Shown here: positions 1 to 28,815 of the stretch, piece after piece
How the letters are laid out: every line of letters begins with the position of its first letter
Position numbering within the stretch: position 1 is the stretch's first letter
Sequence record: NC_019404.1
Source of the DNA: Escherichia phage vB_EcoS_ACG-M12
Length of the DNA: 46,054 nucleotides
Direction: 5' to 3' (one strand)
The notes under the pieces: model-generated
Told to the model about the DNA's origin: nothing
Database searches by the model: none
What the model saw: only the letters and a program-made list of their open reading frames with translations
Program-made: the position numbers and the translations under genes

Positions 1-138
1 TGAACTCTTTCTTTATATGCAAACTTGAAACAGGCGATTCTCATTTTTGTGTGATGCATTCGATTGAAAAAGTCAATAGATGAGAGAAAGAAAACGGGCA
101 ATTTACGCAACTTTTTGCAAATTAATCCTCGCCACAAG

Positions 139-400
139 GTTACATGTAACTTTAGTTATCGCGTGTAGATAATCTGCAATAGTTACGCATATAACGCCAA
201 ATCACGCGCTGGTTACAAATAAATCCCTTATATATAAACAACTTAGATTTATTATTATTATTATTATATATATGTAACTAATGTAACCATGTCATCGGGC
301 GCGTTGATTGAAAATCCTATATTGCGCGCGACTTTTATTTATATATTAGCGGAAGGTATAGCACCCCATTTAGGTCGGTTACAGCTGTCTACTCGGTTAC
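139..400. repeat. GTTAC/GTAAC iteron cluster with 12-bp perfect palindrome GTTACATGTAAC (139-150) and (ATT)5 run (251-265)
   Basis: GTTAC or GTAAC copies at about 139, 146, 182, 212, 274, 283, 378 and 396; AT-rich non-coding leader of the first + operon. Confidence 0.6.
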
Positions 401-478
401 ACTCGCAGGAATAAAGGTGTCAGCAAAATAATTTGTGTAAATTTTGAGTATAACGCTTGTCTACGCGTAATTGAGGTA

Positions 479-488
479 GTATAGTTAT
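479..488 (+). promoter_or_regulatory. -10-like box GTATAGTTAT upstream of gene 528
   Basis: Same TATAGTTA(C) box as in the repeated cassette, but without the upstream dyad box. Confidence 0.35.
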
Positions 489-527
489 CTCACACCAAAG
501 AGAGGTGTCATTGAAAGGGTTATTAAA

Positions 528-1025
528 ATGCAAAAAGTTAGTTTGGGTGAAGTTGTACGTTACATGGTCAAGAAAGCTATCAATTCTGAGAGTGGTGAGT
601 TTGTGATTCCGGTAAGCTATATAGCCGCTCAGGTTTATGGTGCTGACCCAATCGTCATTAGCAAGGAAGACATGGAAAAAGGTGGCGTGTATGACATGAC
701 AAAATTAAAGTCTTCATACGTAGCGAACACATCCAGCAGAATGCCTGAGGTCATTGAGCGAGATTTTAGAGCTAAGATATCTTTTGTTGAAGAGCTTTAT
801 GATGATTCCTATCAGGATTGCGCCAAAATCACAATGGTTAAGGGTGCGGTAAGAAAAGGTTCACGCAAGGCATCCGACCGAATGAAAGAACAAAAGATTA
901 TTGAAGGATTCAGGGAGAAATTACTATCAGTGATGCCTGACCTAAGCCACCTGGAAGGTAATGACATAATCATAGCAGTTAACGCAATCAAGGCAATGAA
1001 AGAAGTTATTAAGGAGATTAAATAA
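528..1025 (+). CDS. hypothetical early protein (165 aa)
   Basis: ATG with upstream AAAGGG; first gene of a tightly packed operon. Confidence 0.5.
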   Translation: MQKVSLGEVVRYMVKKAINSESGEFVIPVSYIAAQVYGADPIVISKEDMEKGGVYDMTKLKSSYVANTSSRMPEVIERDFRAKISFVEELYDDSYQDCAKITMVKGAVRKGSRKASDRMKEQKIIEGFREKLLSVMPDLSHLEGNDIIIAVNAIKAMKEVIKEIK

Positions 1026-2763: not shown

Positions 2764-2823
2764 ACGCAGTCGCCACGGATGGCATATAATTACTTTACCA
2801 ACACAACGAAGAGAGATATAAGA
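2746..2823 (+). promoter_or_regulatory. conserved intergenic cassette (box inside the 3' end of gene 2626..2763; -10 TATAAT at 2785-2790)
   Basis: AATAGCACGAATAGCTAAA followed by GGCATATAATTAC and a leader before the ATG at 2824. Confidence 0.5.
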
Positions 2824-2970
2824 ATGAAAAATGTATTTGGCATCAGCTATGAAGAAGAGTTTGTTGATTGCCTTATTTACCTGAATGAGATCTACGGAGA
2901 TGAGTTTGAATGTGATGGTGATTCACTTCATGCAAAAATAGAACTTGAAACATTTGTGGAGGTTGTTTAA
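2824..2970 (+). CDS. hypothetical protein (48 aa)
   Basis: Track ORF 2779..2970 trimmed to the in-frame ATG at 2824, because 2779 lies inside the promoter -10 box. Confidence 0.4.
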   Translation: MKNVFGISYEEEFVDCLIYLNEIYGDEFECDGDSLHAKIELETFVEVV

Positions 2971-3212
2971 TGATGTTTGGATTATCAGAAGCACACTTCA
3001 ACGCAGTTAAACGCCAGGCAGCAAAGTTGAACGAAGAGTACAGCAAGTTATCGCCAAAACAGCGCAAGGACGATAAGCAGGTTGCGGCATTGATTTCTAA
3101 GATGTGGGAACCAGTGTTCACAATCATTAGTCGAGATAGATTTGTCTGGACTAGTGGATATCTTAAGGGTCGCGTTGGTCATGACGAGAATGGTCAATCG
3201 TTGTACGAATAG
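2970..3212 (+). CDS. hypothetical protein (80 aa)
   Basis: ATG overlapping the upstream stop. Confidence 0.5.
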   Translation: MMFGLSEAHFNAVKRQAAKLNEEYSKLSPKQRKDDKQVAALISKMWEPVFTIISRDRFVWTSGYLKGRVGHDENGQSLYE

Positions 3213-3486
3213 ATTGGATTGTTAAAAAAGAGCTTGCATCACTGAGTGGAAGTATATAATATTAATCACGTAGACAGGCGAGGCCACTAAGTGGCAACGG
3301 CGCACGGAGCGCAACTACTAAGTCCGTTGCTCATTAAGTAGCGTATGCGGCACACTTCCCAGTATGGGCTTTATCCCATTAGGGACTTGTAAGACCTAGA
3401 GCAAATAGGCAATCAAATCGGTCGTAACAGGCGACGCTGGATCCGTAACCAGCAATCTTCATCTAGCAAGTCTAGCTAAAGATTAT

Positions 3487-3561
3487 GCTCTGTTAGCTTA
3501 ATGGAAAAAGCCGCAGCCTTCTAAGCTGTTGATGGTGGTTCGACTCCACCACGGGGCGCCA
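3487..3561 (+). tRNA. tRNA-Arg(UCU)-like, 75 nt with encoded CCA
   Basis: Hand-folded cloverleaf: acceptor GCTCTGT/ACGGGGC (two G-U pairs), D-stem GCTT/AAGC with GG in the loop, anticodon stem GCAGC/GCTGT with loop CTTCTAA, T-arm GGTGG-TTCGACT-CCACC, discriminator G, CCA. Confidence 0.6.
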
Positions 3562-3580
3562 AATTCAAGGAGTCCTATCA

Positions 3581-3763
3581 ATGTGGGATGTTAAGTTATC
3601 TATCAGATTAATGGGTCGCAGTTGCAAGAATTGCACTCAAGAGTACATCGCGTCAGTTGCCGCAATCAGCGCTGAGGATGCGGTAGCGAAAGTAAAGGAT
3701 ATGTCGGGCGCTGACCCTGACACCCATAAATTCCTAGTAGCTTACATTCGTGAGCGAAAGTAA
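3581..3763 (+). CDS. hypothetical protein (60 aa)
   Basis: ATG with SD AAGGAG; followed by a terminator. Confidence 0.45.
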   Translation: MWDVKLSIRLMGRSCKNCTQEYIASVAAISAEDAVAKVKDMSGADPDTHKFLVAYIRERK

Positions 3764-3809
3764 AAAGTGTTATACCCTCGTTTAATTTTCATCTCTCTCT
3801 CGTTGTTTT

Positions 3810-3834
3810 AGCCCTCGCTTGAGGGCTTTTTTTC
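3810..3834 (+). terminator. rho-independent terminator
   Basis: Hairpin AGCCCTC-gctt-GAGGGCT followed by a T7 run. Confidence 0.7.
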
Positions 3835-3844
3835 GTCTGTAATA

Positions 3845-3853
3845 TGCTATAAT
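3845..3853 (+). promoter_or_regulatory. extended -10-like element TGCTATAAT upstream of terS
   Basis: TGn-TATAAT about 24 bp upstream of the ATG at 3877; no dyad box. Confidence 0.4.
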
Positions 3854-3876
3854 CTAGCCTCAACAAAGGAGGATTT

Positions 3877-4383
3877 ATGAGTAAAGCAGCATTAAAGCTA
3901 GGTGGAGGAAACTTTAAGACCCTATACAACAAGAAGTACGGCGACATTGCCATGGTGGCAGTTAACCGAAAGTACACGCCGGAAGAGGTGTTTGATTTCG
4001 CTGTGAGATACTTCACTTGGGCTGAAGGTGAGGCAATAAAAGCAATTGAAACCGCAGCATTCCAGGGAGTTGTTAGTGAAAACCTTATCCATAAACCGAG
4101 AGTCTTCACCTTAACTGGTCTAGCTTTGTTTATTGGCGTTAAGATCGGTAGCTTTGCTCGCTGGCGTTCAGAGCCTGGGTACTCTGACGTGATGGAGTTT
4201 ATTGATAACGTAATCTATGAGCAGAAATATCAGCTTGGCGTTGCAGGTATTATCAACTCTACCATCGTTGGTAAGGAGTTAGGCATTGATAAGCCGCAGG
4301 AAATTACCATTAGCAACAACTCAACAGCTAACGACGTTGATAGCATGAAGGAAGCGCTGGAATCCGTGATTAGTAAGCTATAA
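3877..4383 (+). CDS. terminase small subunit (168 aa)
   Basis: Immediately upstream of the large terminase; SD AAAGGAGG; small oligomeric-type protein with a TLTGLALFIGV-like segment. Confidence 0.6.
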   Translation: MSKAALKLGGGNFKTLYNKKYGDIAMVAVNRKYTPEEVFDFAVRYFTWAEGEAIKAIETAAFQGVVSENLIHKPRVFTLTGLALFIGVKIGSFARWRSEPGYSDVMEFIDNVIYEQKYQLGVAGIINSTIVGKELGIDKPQEITISNNSTANDVDSMKEALESVISKL

Positions 4384-6391: not shown

Positions 6392-6413
6392 AGCCCCTAC
6401 ATGGGGCTTTTTT
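6392..6413 (+). terminator. rho-independent terminator
   Basis: AGCCCC-tacat-GGGGCT followed by a T6 run. Confidence 0.65.
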
Positions 6414-6427
6414 ATTGGAGAAATGCA

Positions 6428-7684
6428 ATGGTAAAAACAGACAGCTACGCCAATATCTTTCTTGGCGGCAGTGACGGTAGTGAGATTTACGGAAGTTTAC
6501 AGAATCAGGCGCCTACAATTCTGGCTTCGCTTTATGCGGATAATGCACTTGTGCGTCGAATTATTGACACAATCCCAGAAACAGCATTGGCAGCAGGGTT
6601 CCATATTGATGGTATTGATGACGAACCTGCGTTCTGGTCGCGCTGGGATGATCTTGAGATGACGCAGAATATCAACGATGCCTGGTCATGGGCTCGGTTG
6701 TTCGGTGGTGCGGCAATTGTCGCTATCGTTAAGGACAATAGAGCGCTAACAAGTCCAGTCAGAGAGGGTGCTGAACTTGAAACGGTTCGTGTTTACGACC
6801 GCACGCAAGTGAAAGTGCAAAATCGCGAAGAGAATCCACGTAACGCACGCTTTGGTAAGCCTCTGACGTATCGCATCACCACTAACGAAAGCGATATGTT
6901 CTACGACGTGCACTACAGTCGCATTCACATTATCGATGGCGAGCGTGTACCTAACGCAATGCGTAGACAAAATGATGGCTGGGGTCGCAGTGTCCTTTCC
7001 AGTGACATTCTCGACTCAATCAAGGATTACACCAACTGCGAGCGACTCGCCACGCAATTACTTAGACGTAAACAGCAGGCTGTATGGAAAGCGAAAGGCC
7101 TGGCTGAGTTGTGTGATGATAGCGAAGGTTTTGGCGCTGCAAGATTGCGACTGGCGCAGGTTGATAACAACAGTGGCGTAGGTCAGGCGATTGGTATTGA
7201 TGCCGAATCTGAAGAGTATAGCGTTCTAAACTCTGACATTGGTGGGATTGATGCGTTCCTGGACAAGAAGTTTGACAGAATCGTAGCACTGAGCGGTATC
7301 CATGAAATCATCCTCAAGAACAAGAACGTTGGTGGCTTATCATCCAGTCAGAATACGGCGCTTGAGACATTCCACAAGCTGATTGACCGTAAGCGCAACG
7401 CTGAACTACTGCCCATTCTTGAGTTCTTAATACCGTTCATCGTAAACGCAGAAGAATGGTCAGTTGAGTTTAGCCCTCTAGACCATGAGTCAAGCAAGGA
7501 TAAAGCGGAGGTTCTGGAGAAGAGCGTAAACAGCATCGCAGCACTAATTGCAGCCGGAGCTATGGATATCAAAGAGGCACGCGATACACTACGCACTATC
7601 GCACCAGAGATTAAGATTGGTGATAATGATATTCAGACCGAGGAATCGGAGTTAATTACAGAGACGGAGGTTGTAATTGCGTAA
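6428..7684 (+). CDS. portal protein (418 aa)
   Basis: Position after the terminase; size; acidic C-terminus; start moved to the in-frame ATG 8 nt after GGAG because the track start lies in the terminator. Confidence 0.6.
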   Translation: MVKTDSYANIFLGGSDGSEIYGSLQNQAPTILASLYADNALVRRIIDTIPETALAAGFHIDGIDDEPAFWSRWDDLEMTQNINDAWSWARLFGGAAIVAIVKDNRALTSPVREGAELETVRVYDRTQVKVQNREENPRNARFGKPLTYRITTNESDMFYDVHYSRIHIIDGERVPNAMRRQNDGWGRSVLSSDILDSIKDYTNCERLATQLLRRKQQAVWKAKGLAELCDDSEGFGAARLRLAQVDNNSGVGQAIGIDAESEEYSVLNSDIGGIDAFLDKKFDRIVALSGIHEIILKNKNVGGLSSSQNTALETFHKLIDRKRNAELLPILEFLIPFIVNAEEWSVEFSPLDHESSKDKAEVLEKSVNSIAALIAAGAMDIKEARDTLRTIAPEIKIGDNDIQTEESELITETEVVIA

Positions 7685-7749
7685 ATTAACTGGTTTCGGT
7701 GAGGGGTAATGAAAAATGAATTTGATGGCTTTTAGTGAGGAGAATTGTG

Positions 7750-8859
7750 ATGTGTAAGATCCGCTATGACAGTGCAAAGGTAAAGGTCCGATTTGATGAA
7801 AACGGATTCCTGGTTGATACCCCGATTGTTGCGCGCGTCGGGGTGCAAACCTACTACCTTCCAGACGGTACAGAACGCAGAGAATTTAGACCAGCCTCAG
7901 AGGTCTTTAAACCTGATTCTCTTGCTAGTTATCAGGGTAAACCAATTACCTTGGGTCATGTTTTTGTTAACTCAGAGAATGCCAAAGAGGTCGTTGTGGG
8001 CGCGGTATCTGGGTCAGCTATGCGTGAGGACTCTAATGTTATTGTTCCTCTAACCGTTTACGACAAGGAATCCATCGAGAAGGCAAAGTCCGGCATTGCT
8101 GGTGAGTTATCAGTAGGTTACTCCACTGTTGATATTGATTCGAAAGGTTGGGGTAGCAATGAAACTGGTGAGTATAAGCTGGACGGAGAATACCATTCAC
8201 AAGATGAAATCCCTTCTGATTGGGTCAGATTCGATGCCCTGCAAACTGAAATCAAAGTAAATCACGTCGCTCTTGTCTATCAGGGCCGCGCTGGAGTAGC
8301 CAAACTTAATTTTGACGCTCAGCAGGAAAACCCGTATACTGGCAGCGTTGATTCTATTAAAGAGGACGTAAAAGAAATGGTTAAGATTAAACTCGACGGT
8401 GCTCAGGAGTTTGAAATTGCTCCCGAAGTCGCCGCACACATTGAAGCAGTTAAGGCCGACTTAGCAAAAGAGAAAGCAAAAGCTGACGCTCTTGAAGCTG
8501 AGCGTGATGCGCTTAAGGATAAAGTTGATGCAATGCCAGCAGAAATCGAGAAAGCAGTTGCTAAAGCGAAAGCAGACGCAGACGCGCTCGCAGCTTTGGT
8601 TGCTGTTGCTGCTGATGCTGGTGTTAAAGCTGATGGTCTGGATGCTAAAGGCATTAAAGTAGCTTACGTTAAAGAAATCTCCGGCCTTGATGTTTCGGAG
8701 AAGTCTGACGCATACATCGACGCAGCGTTCGACATTGCCAAAGAATCTGATAAAATGGCTGAAGTACGTAAAGCGACTACCGCTTCCGACAAATCTGACA
8801 GCGCCGATGAGCCTAAGAAATTAGACCCGCGTGCTCGTTTAGCTAAAATTAAGAAATAA
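7750..8859 (+). CDS. prohead scaffold/protease-like protein with Ala/Lys/Glu-rich coiled-coil C-terminus (369 aa)
   Basis: Position between portal and capsid; C-terminal AKEKAKADALEAERDALKDKVDA-type low-complexity helix; start at the ATG after AGGAG. Confidence 0.5.
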   Translation: MCKIRYDSAKVKVRFDENGFLVDTPIVARVGVQTYYLPDGTERREFRPASEVFKPDSLASYQGKPITLGHVFVNSENAKEVVVGAVSGSAMREDSNVIVPLTVYDKESIEKAKSGIAGELSVGYSTVDIDSKGWGSNETGEYKLDGEYHSQDEIPSDWVRFDALQTEIKVNHVALVYQGRAGVAKLNFDAQQENPYTGSVDSIKEDVKEMVKIKLDGAQEFEIAPEVAAHIEAVKADLAKEKAKADALEAERDALKDKVDAMPAEIEKAVAKAKADADALAALVAVAADAGVKADGLDAKGIKVAYVKEISGLDVSEKSDAYIDAAFDIAKESDKMAEVRKATTASDKSDSADEPKKLDPRARLAKIKK

Positions 8860-10541: not shown

Positions 10542-10787
10542 ATGATTCGTTTAGAACATACAGGCGCTTGCCTTATCGTTTACAAAGGTGAGAAATATTT
10601 ACCTGGCGACGCTTTCGAGGTTGATGTAATTTGTGACGGTCTTAAGCGCTTAATCGCAGAGGGTAAACTCACCATTGAAGGTGATGCTAAAGCAACAAAA
10701 CAGATCGCGCAAGAAGTTGTTAGCAAGAAAAAGCGCAAAGAACCGAAAACCATCTCCGAAGCTGAGACTGGTAACGAGTACAAATAA
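10542..10787 (+). CDS. hypothetical protein (81 aa)
   Basis: SD AAAGGAG; Lys-rich C-terminus. Confidence 0.45.
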   Translation: MIRLEHTGACLIVYKGEKYLPGDAFEVDVICDGLKRLIAEGKLTIEGDAKATKQIAQEVVSKKKRKEPKTISEAETGNEYK

Positions 10788-10793
10788 TAAACA

Positions 10794-10815
10794 GGGCGCT
10801 TCGGCGTCCTTTATT
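10794..10815 (+). terminator. rho-independent terminator
   Basis: GGGCGC-ttcg-GCGTCC followed by TTTATT. Confidence 0.5.
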
Positions 10816-13818: not shown

Positions 13819-14138
13819 AGAGGGCGGTGTATCTACAGTACCAGTCAGAGCCAACTGATGCCGAACTGGAGGCTATTGGGATGCGCCGCTCTGATTACGA
13901 AGATGAAGAGCCTGAAGTTTTACACTTCGACGAAAACATGATGAAAGCATGGGACATTTACTGTTCAATGGCTACGCAGTGGAGAGTCGGAGCTAACGGA
14001 GCTACAGGTCTAGATTACAACGTGCTAAATTTCCTCTTTAGAGTGTATAATGTCTCAGAAGAAGAATTGGTGCTCAGCGATTTACGCATCCTTGAAGCTA
14101 AGGCTCTTGAGATGATGGATAACCTGAGAAAAAAATAA
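13504..14138 (+). CDS. predicted frameshifted chaperone fusion (GT-like) via -1 slip at 13809-13815
   Basis: ORF 13827..14138 is in the -1 frame relative to 13504..13818 and has no ATG of its own (track start is GTG); classic arrangement before the tape measure. Confidence 0.5.
13809..13815 (+). other. candidate -1 programmed frameshift site A_AAA_AAC
   Basis: X_XXY_YYZ heptamer in the zero frame (GTA AAA AAC TAA); the -1 frame stays open into ORF 13827..14138. Confidence 0.55.
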
Positions 14139-14158
14139 CCCGCTTCGGCGGGTTTTCT
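14138..14158 (+). terminator. terminator-like hairpin (attenuator?)
   Basis: ACCCGC-ttcg-GCGGGT followed by TTTTCT; the tape measure gene starts 16 nt later. Confidence 0.4.
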
Positions 14159-14173
14159 ATTATGGAGGCTTAG

Positions 14174-17152
14174 ATGGCAACAAATGAATTAGCCGGAATC
14201 ACACTAGCCGTAGACGTCTCGCAGGTAGACAGGGGAACGCAATCCCTACAAAAGTTCAGACAGGCCAACCAACAGGCTGCATCTGGGATTAGTGAGTTCG
14301 TCAATGCTGAGCAGGTTGCTAAAAACCAGGCTAGAGATACCGCTCGCGCACTTGCTGAGCAACAGGCATCTTTAGCTAAATTGCAAACAGCTATTGATCC
14401 AACCGCTGCAAAGTTCCGCAAGCTGCAAGAGGCTGCTGTAGGTCTGGATAAGGCATTCGCGGCTGGAGTAGTTCCTGATGAGGAGTTTTTCCGATTAGGT
14501 GAAGCCCTTGAAACGCAGAACGCAAAACTTGCTCGTTCACGTGCGGCACTAACTGAGGAGGGTAGAGCGGCAGCTCAGGCCGCAAAAGATAAAGCAAAGG
14601 CAAAGGCTGAAGCTGATAGGTTCATTGCGTCACTTGAGCGCCAGGCTCAAGCGGCAACATTGACGCGCGAAGAGTATCTAAAGTTACAGGCTGCTCAGCT
14701 TGGCGTAAGTTCTCAGGCGGCACCTATTATTGACAGAATCGCCGATGCATCACAGAAGGCAAACACCCAGCTAATTGCTCAGAGTAAGGCTTTTCAGAAA
14801 TCAGGATTAAGCGCGGGTCAATACAAGAATGCAATTTCTCAGCTGCCAGCGCAGATTACTGATATTGGCACGTCGCTTGCTGGCGGCATTCCGATTTGGC
14901 TTATTGCAATTCAGCAAGGTGGGCAGATCAAGGATGCATTTGGCGGTATTGGTAACACATTTAGATTCGCGCTTGCAGCCTTAAACCCATTCAATGTAGC
15001 TGTTGGTGTTTTGGGTGGGGCGCTTGTAGCTCTTGGTGTTGGTGCGGCTCAGGCTGAAAGTGAATTCAGAGCATTAAACTCCGCAATTGCTTTCTCCAAC
15101 AACTCTACAATCGCATCAATTTCGCAGGTTAGAGAGTTGGTTAGCTCTGTTTCTGATGCAACAGGTGCCACCAGAGGACTTGTGACTAGCATCGCAACAA
15201 GCCTTATTGAGCAAGGGAACCTTACGCTGACGCAGATTGACAAGATTACTAAATCGACCGCAAGATGGGCGCAGTTGACAGGTAAGGATGCGAAGGAGAT
15301 TACTGGTTACTATAACCAGATTGCAAGCGACCCAATCCAGGGTTTAGTTGATTTGGATAAGCGCTTTAACTTCCTCACACAGGGGCAGTTGACGACAATC
15401 GAAAACCTGAGAAAGACAAAGGGAGAAGTTGAGGCCGTTACTGCTGCGATTGATATTTTCAGCAAGTCTCAGGAAGCCAACCTTAACGACATAGCTGCGC
15501 AGTTAACTCCGCTTGAGCTAGCCTGGAATGATTTCAGAAAGTACATCTCTGATATATGGGATGCAATTAGCCGTAGAACGGTTGGGGCTCTAAACCTGTT
15601 TGTTGACGTAATCGCCGGAACAATTGAGCAGATCAGGGTCTTCATTAATCAGGGTGATGCGCTGATTGGTGAATTCGTAATTAGCGCAACTCAGGCATTG
15701 CAGAACATTCCTGGTCTTGATGGCGTTGGTGATGATGTTATCAAGGGGCAGCAGAAGATTATCGATGCCGCCAAGAAGCAAAACCTTGAGCTAGAGAAGT
15801 CTATCAAGGAGCGCGATGCCAGAATCAGAGAGGGAGAGCTTGGTTACGTTACTCGCAGAGAAAATCAGAATACCAATGAGCAGTCAGGTACTGATGAGGA
15901 ATTTGCAAAAAGGAAGAAGGCGCTTCAGGATGAGCTTGATGCGATCAAGAAGAACAGGAAAGAAGAAAATAGTAGGGTTAAGGAGCAAAGAGATTTAACA
16001 ATTGGTTATGAATATGGCGTTCTGGCGCTTCAGGCTCAACTCAAGGCGCTTCAGGAAAACAGGGATATTGGCGCAGTAATAAGCAATGAGCGCAAGCAGT
16101 ATCTTCAGGAGGAGGCCAAATTCAGGATTCTTGAGCAGAGACAACTTGATGGCTCAATTACCAAAGAGCAAGCAAGACTTCTCATTGAAAAGGATAAAGT
16201 TCTTGAGTTAGCCAGACAGAAGGCTGAGCTAGGTGATCAGATTGTTTTGCAGGAGCGAGCTAATAAGTTAGCTGAAGATAACCGCAAGAAGATTCTTCAG
16301 ATTAACAATGAGGCAAGTAACATTGATTTGGGTGCTGGTTTATCATCTCGCGAGCAGCAGAGAGCCAAAGAGATTCAGGCTCTTCAATCCAATCAGGTTA
16401 ATGCTGGTGGTTCTGTTGATGATGTTGATTTTCAGCAATTACTGGAAGCAAGAAAGGAATACTACAAGCAGGAGGATAATCTTAGGTCAGACTGGCAATC
16501 CGGTGTAACATCCACTCTCGCCGACTTGACAGAGAAGTACACTGACTACAACCAGATTGCTAAGGACTTAACTGTTGCGGCATTCGATGGAATTACAGAA
16601 CAGATTACAAACCTTGTAACCACTGGTGAGACTAATTTCAGAGATTTCACAGCAAGCATCCTCAAAATGATTGCGAAGATTGCAACTCAGTTACTTTTGG
16701 TTAAGGCCATCGAATCAACATTGACTAGTTTTGGTGGTGGGGGAGGTAACGTGTTTGGCTCACTTGCATCTGCCATAGGTTTTGCTGGTGGCGGCTATAC
16801 TGGTGATGGTGGGAAGTATCAGCCAGCAGGAACGGTGCACCGTGGTGAGTTTGTATTCACAAAAGAAGCGACAAGCAGAATTGGCGTGAAAAACCTTTAC
16901 GCGCTGATGAAGGGTTATGCGAATGGCGGCGCTGTTGGTGGTCCTTCCGGTTATGCGAATGGTGGTTTGGTTTCTGGTGGAACTGATGTTAATGTTAGCG
17001 GCATCACTGTTAACGTAAATTCCGGTTTGGGTGGCGACTCAGAGCAAGCAAAAGCATTGCAGAGTGGCGTCAAGGCTATCGTAGCGGAAGAAATTGCTCA
17101 GTCTTTCCAGCAGGGTGGCAGGGCGTATGCCTATTTGAGAGGTTTTAACTAA
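14174..17152 (+). CDS. tail tape measure protein (992 aa)
   Basis: Largest tail gene after the chaperones; long Ala/Gln/Glu-rich coiled coil; Gly-rich C-terminal region. Confidence 0.8.
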   Translation: MATNELAGITLAVDVSQVDRGTQSLQKFRQANQQAASGISEFVNAEQVAKNQARDTARALAEQQASLAKLQTAIDPTAAKFRKLQEAAVGLDKAFAAGVVPDEEFFRLGEALETQNAKLARSRAALTEEGRAAAQAAKDKAKAKAEADRFIASLERQAQAATLTREEYLKLQAAQLGVSSQAAPIIDRIADASQKANTQLIAQSKAFQKSGLSAGQYKNAISQLPAQITDIGTSLAGGIPIWLIAIQQGGQIKDAFGGIGNTFRFALAALNPFNVAVGVLGGALVALGVGAAQAESEFRALNSAIAFSNNSTIASISQVRELVSSVSDATGATRGLVTSIATSLIEQGNLTLTQIDKITKSTARWAQLTGKDAKEITGYYNQIASDPIQGLVDLDKRFNFLTQGQLTTIENLRKTKGEVEAVTAAIDIFSKSQEANLNDIAAQLTPLELAWNDFRKYISDIWDAISRRTVGALNLFVDVIAGTIEQIRVFINQGDALIGEFVISATQALQNIPGLDGVGDDVIKGQQKIIDAAKKQNLELEKSIKERDARIREGELGYVTRRENQNTNEQSGTDEEFAKRKKALQDELDAIKKNRKEENSRVKEQRDLTIGYEYGVLALQAQLKALQENRDIGAVISNERKQYLQEEAKFRILEQRQLDGSITKEQARLLIEKDKVLELARQKAELGDQIVLQERANKLAEDNRKKILQINNEASNIDLGAGLSSREQQRAKEIQALQSNQVNAGGSVDDVDFQQLLEARKEYYKQEDNLRSDWQSGVTSTLADLTEKYTDYNQIAKDLTVAAFDGITEQITNLVTTGETNFRDFTASILKMIAKIATQLLLVKAIESTLTSFGGGGGNVFGSLASAIGFAGGGYTGDGGKYQPAGTVHRGEFVFTKEATSRIGVKNLYALMKGYANGGAVGGPSGYANGGLVSGGTDVNVSGITVNVNSGLGGDSEQAKALQSGVKAIVAEEIAQSFQQGGRAYAYLRGFN

Positions 17153-19274: not shown

Positions 19275-19332
19275 ACAAAATTAGTGTTAAACTAGGTCAA
19301 TCGAAAGGTTGGCCTTTTTTATTGGAGATAAA

Positions 19333-20091
19333 ATGTTAACACCAAAGGTTAAGCTGGAAATCTTCCAGCACGCAAAAGAAATTTACCCGCATGAGTGCTG
19401 CGGAGTTGTAACGCAGAAGGGTCGGGCGCAGAAATATCACAGAATCACTAACGCCAGCAAAGACCCCGAGAACGAGTTCATTCTTGATTCAAACGAGTAT
19501 GCAGATGTTCTCTTTGAATTGGCTCACAATGAATCTATTGTTTACGTAGTTCACTCTCACACAGGCGACGGAGCAACAACAAGGCCAAGTCCTGCGGATA
19601 TTTGTAGCTGCAATGAGTGCGAGATTCCGTATGTTATCGTAAGTATCCCAGAGGGAGATATGCGGATTCTTGAGCCGTCAACCATGCCTCTGATTGGTCG
19701 CCCGTGGGGGCTTGGTAGCTTTGATTGCTGGGAGATGGTTATGTCGTTTCACAAGAAATACGGAGTAAAACTGAATGACTACCGCGTTAATTACCCGTGG
19801 TGGGAGAAACGGTACAATGAAAATATCTATGACGACAACTGGGTTGAGGAAGGATTTGAGCTGGTGAAAACTTCAGATATTCCCATTGGCTCAATGATTA
19901 TGATGCAAGTGCAAAGCGAGGTGACAAACCACGCCGGAATCTATATTGGCAATAACAGATTCATCCACCATCTATATGGTAAAATGAGTTCAGTAGATAT
20001 CTATTCCGATTACTGGCGCGAGCGCACGGTGCGAATTGTTCGCCATAAGGATTTACCAGAGGATGTAATTTATGACCCAGAAACTGATTGA
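19333..20091 (+). CDS. tail tip assembly protein, lambda K-like (MPN/JAB plus NlpC/P60-like, 252 aa)
   Basis: HPHECCG...VVHSHTGDG JAB-type metal motif; C-terminal Cys/His peptidase-like region; start at the ATG after GGAG. Confidence 0.65.
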   Translation: MLTPKVKLEIFQHAKEIYPHECCGVVTQKGRAQKYHRITNASKDPENEFILDSNEYADVLFELAHNESIVYVVHSHTGDGATTRPSPADICSCNECEIPYVIVSIPEGDMRILEPSTMPLIGRPWGLGSFDCWEMVMSFHKKYGVKLNDYRVNYPWWEKRYNENIYDDNWVEEGFELVKTSDIPIGSMIMMQVQSEVTNHAGIYIGNNRFIHHLYGKMSSVDIYSDYWRERTVRIVRHKDLPEDVIYDPETD

Positions 20092-20651: not shown

Positions 20652-20675
20652 ACCCGCCTAGTGCGGGTTTTTTAT
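20652..20675 (+). terminator. terminator-like hairpin
   Basis: CCCGC-ctagt-GCGGG plus T6. Confidence 0.5.
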
Positions 20676-28353: not shown

Positions 28354-28815
28354 ATGCACGTAATTACAGGTCAGATTCGCAAAGCTCCTTACACTAAAGA
28401 TGGTCAGAATGCCAAAGGTAACTGGAAAATGTACGCCATCGAGATGAGCGAATCATACAAGACTAAAGATGGCGAGCGTAAGTACAGTAATTACCGGATT
28501 ACGATGTTTGCCAGTGAGGCGCAGATTAGTTGGTATGATGAAGCATTTCAGGAAGGAAAAGTTATTTCTGTTAGTGGTGATTCATTGGCGGTTAATGAGC
28601 GTGAGCATAATGGAAAGGTTTATATTACGCTTGAGTTGCAGAATCCTCGATTGATGTTTAGCCAGCGCGGCAGTGAATTAGCTACACAGCAACAGCGCCA
28701 GCAGCATCAGCAACAGCAGCGGCAGCAACCACAGCATCAAAGCCAGTTTGAAGACGATATTCCGTTTGCTCCTATTGGTCTTCAGTACGGTATGTCAAAT
28801 ATTTATGTACTATAA
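28354..28815 (+). CDS. ssb: single-stranded DNA-binding protein (153 aa)
   Basis: Gln-rich linker QQQRQQHQQQQRQQ followed by the acidic tip FEDDIPF; unusual 15-aa extension after DDIPF. Confidence 0.7.
   Translation: MHVITGQIRKAPYTKDGQNAKGNWKMYAIEMSESYKTKDGERKYSNYRITMFASEAQISWYDEAFQEGKVISVSGDSLAVNEREHNGKVYITLELQNPRLMFSQRGSELATQQQRQQHQQQQRQQPQHQSQFEDDIPFAPIGLQYGMSNIYVL

Follow-up and report, generated by a model that had tools for sequence, protein, structure and literature searches.

Features of the locus

The DNA analysed, referred to here as the window, is the 46,054-nucleotide (nt) sequence of Escherichia phage vB_EcoS_ACG-M12 (NC_019404.1), read on one strand from 5' to 3'; judged from its sequence, it is a complete T1-like (Rtp-like) coliphage genome. 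The region of interest is the non-coding spacer at 3213-3486 together with the tRNA-Arg(UCU) gene that follows it at 3487-3561, upstream of terS. The spacer is predicted to consist of a promoter and a structured non-coding leader RNA of ~218 nt (~3269-3486, plus strand). The segment 3234-3561 is very probably the front of a small, self-contained transcription unit conserved in all sampled Drexlerviridae, and we have equally high confidence in its identity as a conserved structured leader RNA with the tRNA as cargo. Its features are as follows.

3234-3262, plus strand: predicted sigma70-type leader promoter, with -35 TTGCAT at 3234-3239, a 17-nt spacer and -10 TAATAT at 3257-3262.
3269-3282, plus strand: conserved single-stranded 5' end of the RNA, CGUAGACAGGCGAG (family consensus CGUAGACAGAAGAG), near-invariant across genera.
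3283-3295, plus strand: helix P1, GCCAC-UAA-GUGGC, followed by a conserved AAC; identified by cross-genus covariation and in the minimum free energy (MFE) fold.
3300-3312, plus strand: helix P2, GCGC-ACGGA-GCGC, invariant within Braunvirinae.
3322-3351, plus strand: helix P3, specific to Braunvirinae, with outer CCGU/GCGG, inner UGCU/AGCG and loop CAUUAAGU; identified by RNAalifold and pair counts.
3358-3409, plus strand: variable middle, with module hairpins M2, M3 and P4.
3358-3368, plus strand: hairpin M2, CCCA-GUA-UGGG, present only in the window phage and AugustePiccard.
3375-3384, plus strand: hairpin M3 of the variable middle, CCC-AUUA-GGG.
3395-3409, plus strand: hairpin P4 of the variable middle, CCUA-GAGCAAA-UAGG.
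3415-3464, plus strand: conserved 3' module of AAAUCG, P5, P6 and an A/U-rich tail; identified by covariance model and pair counts.
3421-3435, plus strand: helix P5, GUCGU/GCGAC, abutting P6.
3436-3453, plus strand: helix P6, GCUGG-AUCCGUAA-CCAGC, abutting P5.
3454-3484, plus strand: pre-tRNA hairpin P7, AAUCUU...AAGAUU with inner CUAG/CUAG, present only in the lineage of the window phage, IME542, TR2, ES and IMM-001.
3487-3561, plus strand: tRNA-Arg(UCU) with encoded CCA; identified by ARAGORN, the Rfam tRNA model and the annotation of phage ECH1.

An exact match to CGUAGACAGGCGAG occurred once in the window. No open reading frame (ORF) of at least 30 amino acids (aa) was found on the plus strand of 3213-3486, and the sole ORF of the spacer was a TTG-initiated frame of 30 aa on the minus strand (3222-3314). 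An earlier note on this DNA, drawn up from the sequence alone, had described the spacer as free of ORFs.

Conservation in the T1 family

Over 501 bp around the spacer and tRNA, identity was 99% to Escherichia virus ECH1 and 95% to vB_EcoS_SCS31 (46,054 bp each; Drexlerviridae, Braunvirinae, Guelphvirus), and the spacer on its own was 100% identical to that of SCS31. Sampling of the T1 family (Drexlerviridae) covered 13 genera or lineages, to which "all" and "every" refer throughout. The Braunvirinae were represented by a set of 16 phages, in all of which a tRNA-Arg was located 160-290 nt 3' of the conserved block. Other genera were reached by searches using the most divergent leader variants, and a diverged leader was found at the same syntenic site in each of the following.

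Nouzillyvirus: ESCO41 and BUCT-XGG-1.
Eclunavirus: Ec_L1.
Rogunavirinae (three genera): Sf12, phiEB49 and Sd1.
Sauletekiovirus: AAS23.
Vilniusvirus: NBD2 and LF82-10.
Unclassified (Klebsiella): K62PH164C2.
Tunavirus: T1, with its leader copy at 7596-7754.

Scanning of IMG/VR with a degenerate 16-nt pattern gave 120 loci, almost all of them due to chance, of which nhmmer retained 3; a specific 24-base pattern gave only 7 contigs, nearly all isolates, and no added diversity. A coliphage-type leader region (78-94% identity) was present in MG065688 (Campylobacter phage A110b) and PP134917 (Pseudomonas phage PsgS01F). The records of PsgS01F and of E. coli phage UALMA_PCEc3 are both 44,679 bp long, and both gave 94.1% identity over the matched 135 nt; the Campylobacter and Pseudomonas host labels look doubtful.

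The leader promoter was missed by a consensus scan because its -35 matches the consensus at 3/6 positions only; an A-tract lies upstream of it at 3224-3229. The TTGCAT-17-TAATAT arrangement was kept in 15/16 Braunvirinae. Phage ES carried an unrelated promoter, TTGACA-17-TACATT, at the identical position, and ES and the other genera had a different promoter in equal placement (TTGACA/TTGACC-17/18-TAnnnT). The -10 hexamer ended 6 nt before CGTAG in every genus. Transcription is predicted to start at about 3268-3270: E. coli RNA polymerase would initiate 6-8 nt past the -10 hexamer, and the leader would fold co-transcriptionally.

The 5' strand common to the genera was CGUAGAC(A/G)RA(C/A)GAG. 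At the P2 site, other genera had wholly different perfect stems (GCAUC/GAUGC, GUGAGA/UCUCAC, GCAUCA/UGAUGC, GCGG/CCGC and GCCCC/GGGGC). In the variable middle entire hairpin modules were gained or lost between relatives, and leader length ranged from 157 to 293 nt within Braunvirinae; the K62PH164C2 version was reduced to ~58 nt, comprising the 5' strand and two hairpins. The P5 loop was AUUGUGAAA or AUAGUGGUAA across genera, and P6 was a 5-bp G+C-rich hairpin with loop A-N(1-4)-CGUAA, in which the CGUAA end was invariant. The outer stem of P7 covaried, AUCUU/AAGAU being replaced by CCUU/AAGG in ES.

Selection on the RNA structure

Folded alone, the spacer sequence gave z=-1.9 on the plus strand and -1.6 on the minus strand relative to shuffles. 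Since folding of the lone sequence is weak, the significance of the structure comes only through comparative evidence. The earlier note had called the spacer hairpin-rich, a description that by energy alone stands barely above chance; the two hairpins that it named were recovered as P1 and M2.

Pairing in P1, P3, P5 and P6 was kept by compensatory changes, with 91-99% of cells paired against 13-54% in slid controls. Within Braunvirinae, P1, P2 and P3 together had 98.6% of cells paired (slid controls 13-47%) and P5 and P6 together had 98.3% (slid controls 22-45%), with 5 pairs changed on both sides in each set; covariation, measured by RNAalifold and explicit pair counts, scored above 500/500 shuffles. 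Across genera, P1 (alignment A8) was paired in 91.3% of cells (slid controls 14-32%), 6/7 of its pairs were changed on both sides, and its covariation score of 0.61 against 0.16 was reached by 0/500 shuffles. Cross-genus P6, in an alignment fitted to the model, had 99.2% of cells paired and 4/5 pairs changed on both sides.

Between genera the stems were unrelated in sequence yet always complementary. For this reason MAFFT could not align P5 and P2 across genera, and a covariance model and unconstrained folding were used instead. Unconstrained MFE folding placed P1 and P2 at equivalent positions in nearly all of 27 distinct 5' modules, and P5 and P6 at homologous positions in 23/25 distinct 3' modules. 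The covariance model of the 3' module, R1, was built from Braunvirinae only. It matched the 3' module of the window at 68 bits (E=2.5e-16) and the syntenic site in AAS23 (E=1e-4), Ec_L1 (9e-4), T1 (2e-3) and ESCO41 (4e-3), and also in EB49 and Sf12. The 3' module is single-copy: R1 gave a single credible match over the entire window, and likewise over the entire T1 genome.

The pairs also indicated the strand. In P3 the sequence CCG was changed to CCA, paired with UGG, in relatives; at two positions of P3, U.G was the pair seen most often (in 10 and 12 of the 16 sequences), as it was at one position of P5, and the 3' modules contained 24 G.U pairs. Because the commonest U.G pairs would be A.C mismatches on the other strand, the selected molecule is the plus-strand RNA. 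The mean MFE z of the homologues was -1.9 on the plus strand and -1.1 on the minus strand. A small RNA had been listed in the earlier note among three candidate functions, and of these it is the one borne out by the evidence.

A second candidate listed there was a pac-type packaging signal, which can be considered together with other DNA-level sites (an origin, or palindromic operators). A single-copy element that contains inverted repeats and lies a few hundred bp upstream of terS would suit such a role. DNA-binding sites, however, conserve sequence and not pairing, and the covariation of the leader therefore speaks against one: the stems swap their sequence completely with complementarity kept, and the G.U pairs mismatch on the other strand. 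Two related genomes add indirect evidence. In T1, whose sequence record opens at the packaging end (terminal repeat 1-2800), the homologous element is 7.6 kb away at 7596-7754, with terS at 8396. In phage SU57 the genome end falls in the untranslated region (UTR) that precedes the small-ORF block (PMC7718038); the UTR matching it in the window is 1-528, not 3213-3486. The GC skew had no inflection at 3.3 kb and gave no hint of an origin. A DNA-level site is accordingly most improbable.

It is almost as hard to see in the spacer nothing more than a promoter with the usual leader of a tRNA precursor, or the decayed remains of a second tRNA, in either case with fortuitous hairpins. The weak single-sequence z would be expected of such a region, and tRNA genes do need a promoter and a leader. 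The element was nevertheless conserved in phages that lack tRNAs altogether (T1, Ec_L1, AAS23 and K62PH164C2); four helices covaried; and the 5' core was 83-88% conserved, as much as the neighbouring protein genes (75-91%). Neither ARAGORN nor Rfam gave a tRNA-like signal: ARAGORN made no tRNA call over 3213-3486, and the Rfam tRNA clan at E<=10 gave nothing in 2800-4000 besides the real tRNA. This explanation is very unlikely, and the second degenerate tRNA offered in the earlier note is contradicted by both programs. A tRNA-like fold of P4-P5-P6 was rejected: an acceptor stem cannot be built from the flanks, the elements are wrongly spaced, and neither predictor gave a signal. Comparison with the protein genes only partly bore out the idea of a spacer conserved beyond its flanks.

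Three points weigh against the reading of the spacer as a selected leader RNA. The single sequence folds with an energy only slightly better than that of its shuffles. The shuffle controls overstate significance because the sequences are related, and for P6 the alignment across genera had been fitted to the model. Finally, the start site, the release by RNase P and the stability of the RNA are predictions.

Several further elements were considered and rejected. Kissing of the P2 loop (ACGGA) with the P6 loop (UCCGU) would suit the window phage, but the changes in DTL, TR2 and ES are uncompensated. An outer helix GUAG/CUAC around P1 and P2 appeared in the MFE folds of many Braunvirinae; it was absent from TR2, ES and other genera and did not covary. 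A pseudoknot between UCGG and CCG of the P6 loop was inconsistent in TR2, ES and IMM-001. A leader peptide of 16 codons (GUG start, in the 3' arm of P1) is not conserved, its frame and length differing in other P1 variants. An enrichment of CGUAA in the leader is meaningless, since the pentamer is over-represented genome-wide: dinucleotide-preserving shuffles predict about 72 copies of CGTAA in the whole window, and 134 are present. Only the constancy of the motif at the P6 loop carries weight.

The tRNA gene and the cargo slot

Across the 46 kb window ARAGORN made a single call, tRNA-Arg(tct) at 3487-3561 on the plus strand. The Rfam tRNA model (RF00005) matched 3487-3558 with 61.6 bits (gathering score 29; E=1.2e-12), aligning over model positions 1-71 with every stem paired. 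The cloverleaf is complete, with a 7-bp acceptor stem, D arm, 5-bp anticodon stem, 7-nt loop CU-UCU-AA, T arm, discriminator and a CCA encoded at 3559-3561. The cloverleaf folded by hand in the earlier note, with anticodon UCU and encoded CCA, was thus recovered by both programs, as were its two G-U pairs in the acceptor stem (U3.G70 and U5.G68). The T-loop had been described there as atypical; UUCGACU is canonical, fits T-Psi-C-R-A-N-Y, and differs from the Rfam consensus GGUUCgAaUCC once, at a variable position.

The same tRNA is already annotated in ECH1 (ECH1_77). In 23 confident genes of the window, AGA accounted for 12.5 and AGG for 7.2 of every 1000 codons; the corresponding figures for E. 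coli are about 2 and about 1 per 1000. Use by the phage is far above that of E. coli, and a codon-supply rationale for the tRNA therefore holds: it is an ordinary decoder of AGA, a codon that the host uses rarely and the phage heavily. The gene is a full member of RF00005 with nothing unusual apart from its pattern of matches in E. coli. Its sequence type had no match on the chromosomes of 5,426 E. coli genomes, and its sole matches there were partial (82-85% identity), to tRNA-Arg genes carried in 67 genomes by plasmids of ~75-97 kb. These plasmids are possibly phage-plasmids.

The remainder of the transcription unit and the start of the next one comprise the following.

3581-3763, plus strand: conserved ORF of 60 aa, homologue of T1 gp56, Rtp17 and phrog_2919; the constant coding partner of the leader unit.
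3810-3834, plus strand: intrinsic terminator, AGCCCUC-GCUU-GAGGGCU followed by U7, which ends the leader unit.
3845-3853, plus strand: extended -10 promoter TGCTATAAT for terS, directly after the terminator and outside the leader RNA.

The order of the unit was sigma70 promoter, leader, cargo slot, conserved ORF and terminator, followed by the terS promoter. The earlier note had placed the region just upstream of the terminase genes, which is loosely correct; the conserved ORF, a strong terminator and a separate promoter intervene before terS. The gp56-like ORF was 47-62 aa across the family and always formed one unit with the leader. Its protein had a generic fold, Foldseek gave no significant match, and no function was assigned. 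A terminator preceded terS in 19/19 phages across genera, with covarying stems, and lay ~50 nt from the annotated terS start in 17; the outliers were IME542 (147 nt) and NBD2 (24 nt), whose annotated terS starts look unreliable. In nearly all genera a conserved cTGcAATaTGgTATAAT stood immediately 3' of this terminator.

The contents of the slot varied. Three tRNA-Arg types occurred within Braunvirinae, and across the family the slot held Arg(UCU), Arg(CCU), Arg+Val, Trp+Arg or tRNA-Ser(GCU), or small unrelated ORFs (T1 gp57, Rtp16 and EB49 gp62). It was empty in Ec_L1, AAS23 and K62PH164C2, in which the leader tail runs directly into the ribosome-binding site (RBS). The tRNA is interchangeable cargo and not the reason for the existence of the leader.

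The sequence after the tRNA, 3562-3580 (AAUUCAAGGAG), resembles the leader tail and RBS of tRNA-less phages (T1, L152:7733-7754, CAAUUCAAGAGGA), and AUUCAA also stands before the tRNA in many relatives. The tail-like sequence on one side and AUUCAA on the other hint that the tRNA was inserted into the tail by short-repeat recombination. Downstream of the tRNA-Arg of ESCO41, a sub-threshold Rfam tRNA match was seen at L141:1779-1838 (26 bits, threshold 29), and the UALMA_PCEc3 record carries a 102-nt "tRNA-Ile" annotation (L007:1795-1896) that ARAGORN did not call. Both are possible remnants of further tRNAs.

Possible mode of action

The leader was equally conserved where tRNAs follow it and where it forms a 5' UTR (T1, Ec_L1, AAS23 and K62PH164C2). 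In the window phage, an RNase P cut at the 5' end of the tRNA should free it as a discrete RNA. As the leader is equally conserved whether severed or attached, we infer that its role cannot depend on linkage to the downstream mRNA, and this argues against control of the translation or stability of the small ORF. A regulator of that kind, acting in cis at the mRNA level as a riboregulator, a protein operator or a 5' stabiliser, would be in keeping with the constant union of the leader and the gp56-like ORF in one unit, and with the four tRNA-less phages just named, whose leaders lead directly into the RBS of the first ORF. In most lineages, however, one or two tRNAs that are processed out lie between leader and ORF, with equal conservation. 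The Shine-Dalgarno sequence was not consistently sequestered (P(unpaired) 0.35-0.61), and the 14 unpaired 5' nt are unlike the design of a 5'-terminal stabiliser hairpin. Regulation of the ORF in cis is unlikely.

Two mechanisms would then be left: the leader may act on the polymerase that transcribes it, or it may work as a free RNA or ribonucleoprotein (RNP). In the former, it would bind that polymerase in the manner of the put RNA of phage HK022, making the enzyme resistant to terminators. HK022 put itself acts through the beta' zinc-binding domain of the polymerase and, with no protein factor, curbs pausing and termination. A polymerase so modified by the leader would cross the terminator at 3810 and the many late-region terminators that are followed by no promoter; in all, polymerases that have transcribed the leader would pass the terS terminator and roughly ten terminators of the late operon.

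Strong terminator-like hairpins were found between co-directional late genes of the window at 6392-6408, 10793-10810, 14137-14154, 19294-19315 and 20652-20668, and at all five the RBS or start of the next gene lay within about 10-20 nt. The annotated terminators of T1 (L152) at 10545-10573, 14235-14267, 16107-16137, 16445-16470, 19508-19527 and 28568-28594 lie 9-19 nt before the next gene. There is no room for a promoter after the late terminators, so that late expression needs read-through, by leaky terminators or by an unknown antiterminator. No N- or Q-like gene was found among the annotations. Together with the need for read-through, this adds weight to a leader that acts on the polymerase.

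Like HK022 putL and putR, the leader is a promoter-proximal structured RNA transcribed by the host sigma70 RNA polymerase. It is made right after a host promoter and upstream of the terminators to be passed, and the element begins at the 5' end of the transcript, as putL does. The minimal put unit is two hairpins, and the ~58-nt element of K62PH164C2 is the 5' strand with two hairpins. The put RNA still works when cut from the nascent transcript (PMC9378689), and this would fit the insertion of tRNAs behind the leader. From the published description (PMC9378689), put is ~70 nt long with two long bulged stems and a triplex in stem I, whereas the leader has hairpins of 4-6 bp; the leader unit differs further in the separate promoter before terS. 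Membership of the leader in the put class is not claimed.

A conserved linear segment with a hairpin near the start of the unit is likewise, by eye only, the arrangement of lambda nut and of the rrn leader boxA/boxB. These signals protect untranslated or terminator-containing units. The boxA consensus GCUCUUUA is absent from the leader, the P1 loop is unconserved, unlike boxB, and an N-like gene is not annotated. A likeness of the tail CUCAUUCAAA to boxA or nut was dismissed, as it does not match the GCUCUUUA core.

The other mechanism would be a stable RNA or RNP acting in trans, possibly with the co-encoded small protein. The RNA would be released by RNase P where a tRNA is present and elsewhere by RNase E in the A/U-rich tail, and its conserved 5' CGUAGAC..GAG, P5 loop and P6 ..CGUAA might sequester or guide a host or phage protein. 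Loop and single-strand sequences were kept across genera with the stems covarying, and hairpin modules come and go as in protein-sponge RNAs; GOLLD, ROOL and other phage RNAs adjoining tRNAs set a precedent. Several features do not suit a trans-acting RNA. In the tRNA-less phages the 3' end is not defined by a terminator or in any other way, an Hfq-type module is missing, the co-encoded protein matched only a generic fold, and the count of CGTAA in the leader is uninformative, given how common the motif is genome-wide. A role in trans would be nearly as likely as put-like action on the polymerase.

Put-like action on the transcribing polymerase would be the most likely mechanism on our analysis, favoured over a trans-acting RNP, and is put forward tentatively. 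The wider proposal, that the leader is a processive antiterminator of the T1 family, protein-independent or assisted by a small protein, that doubles as a platform for tRNA expression, is advanced with rather more caution. Three considerations tell against antitermination. The leader has no sequence or structural likeness to put; terS has its own extended -10 promoter, so that its transcripts need not carry the leader; and the late terminators, with short or interrupted U-tracts, may be leaky attenuators. The trans-acting alternative has to contend with tRNA-less phages in which there is no obvious 3'-end signal and no U-tract after P6.

Relation to known RNAs and significance

GOLLD and ROOL are structured phage non-coding RNAs that often adjoin tRNA genes, some of them with embedded tRNAs (10.1101/2024.12.08.627333). 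They are 500-800 nt long, with pseudoknots and multimeric cages, whereas the leader is 58-293 nt, with simple hairpins and a fixed promoter-proximal position. Their Rfam models gave no match at E<=10 in the region of the window or at E<=1 in seven relatives. RNAs C and D of phage T4 (species 1 and 2) are small stable RNAs that are co-transcribed with tRNAs and freed by tRNA-processing enzymes. They lie inside a tRNA cluster; the leader is found at the 5' end of the transcript in every case, whether tRNAs are present or not. Structured phage RNAs that head a transcription unit or lie beside tRNAs are known, so that the leader has precedents as a kind.

As an RNA family it appears to be new, the tRNA having been annotated before. 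Rfam 15 (4227 models) gave only a chance-level match in the spacer (JPX_2, 15.3 bits, E=3.6, minus strand), and nothing overlapped the element in T1, ESCO41, Ec_L1, Sf12, AAS23, LF82-10 or K62PH164C2. The leader had no counterpart in the 5,426 E. coli genomes. It is undescribed in the literature searched, a search that did not extend to the primary T1 and Rtp genome papers; a retron Eco2 paper that names Drexlerviridae and tRNA-Arg is unrelated to it.

T1-like phages rank with the most frequent coliphages; they serve in therapy cocktails and are notorious contaminants of laboratories. To our knowledge their transcriptional programme has hardly been studied. The leader offers a concrete candidate for the read-through of late terminators in the absence of promoters. 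If it is an antiterminator, it would be a second, unrelated put-like class, in a classic T phage, and would explain late-gene expression in T1 without a phage polymerase or a known antiterminator; if it is a stable RNA, it would still be a compact, covariation-supported addition to the few phage non-coding RNAs associated with tRNAs. The tRNA genes of the family, which appear as swappable cargo in a defined slot preceded by a strong promoter and the leader, bear on how phages acquire and express tRNAs, including those that counter host defences that cleave tRNA.

Existing annotation and the left end

In GenBank records the leader was either unannotated or covered by dubious coding sequences (CDSs). 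Overlying the leader or tRNA, in some cases on the minus strand, were CDSs in BEK6 (L008:1709-1822) and TR2 (a "transcriptional repressor", L015:1299-1535), and also ESCO41_00044 (L141:1473-1661) and a CDS in IMM-001 (L144:1460-1691). A non-coding region has probably been mis-annotated in these cases.

The left end of the window (1-528) is non-coding and did not align with the left end of T1. It contains five copies of GGTTAC/GTAACC in 263 bp (138-400), compared with 0.7 per kb genome-wide, as well as AT-rich simple repeats; over the whole window GGTTAC occurs 33 times, with 14 expected from the same kind of shuffles as used for CGTAA. This end is a better candidate than the spacer for a pac, replication or regulatory repeat region.

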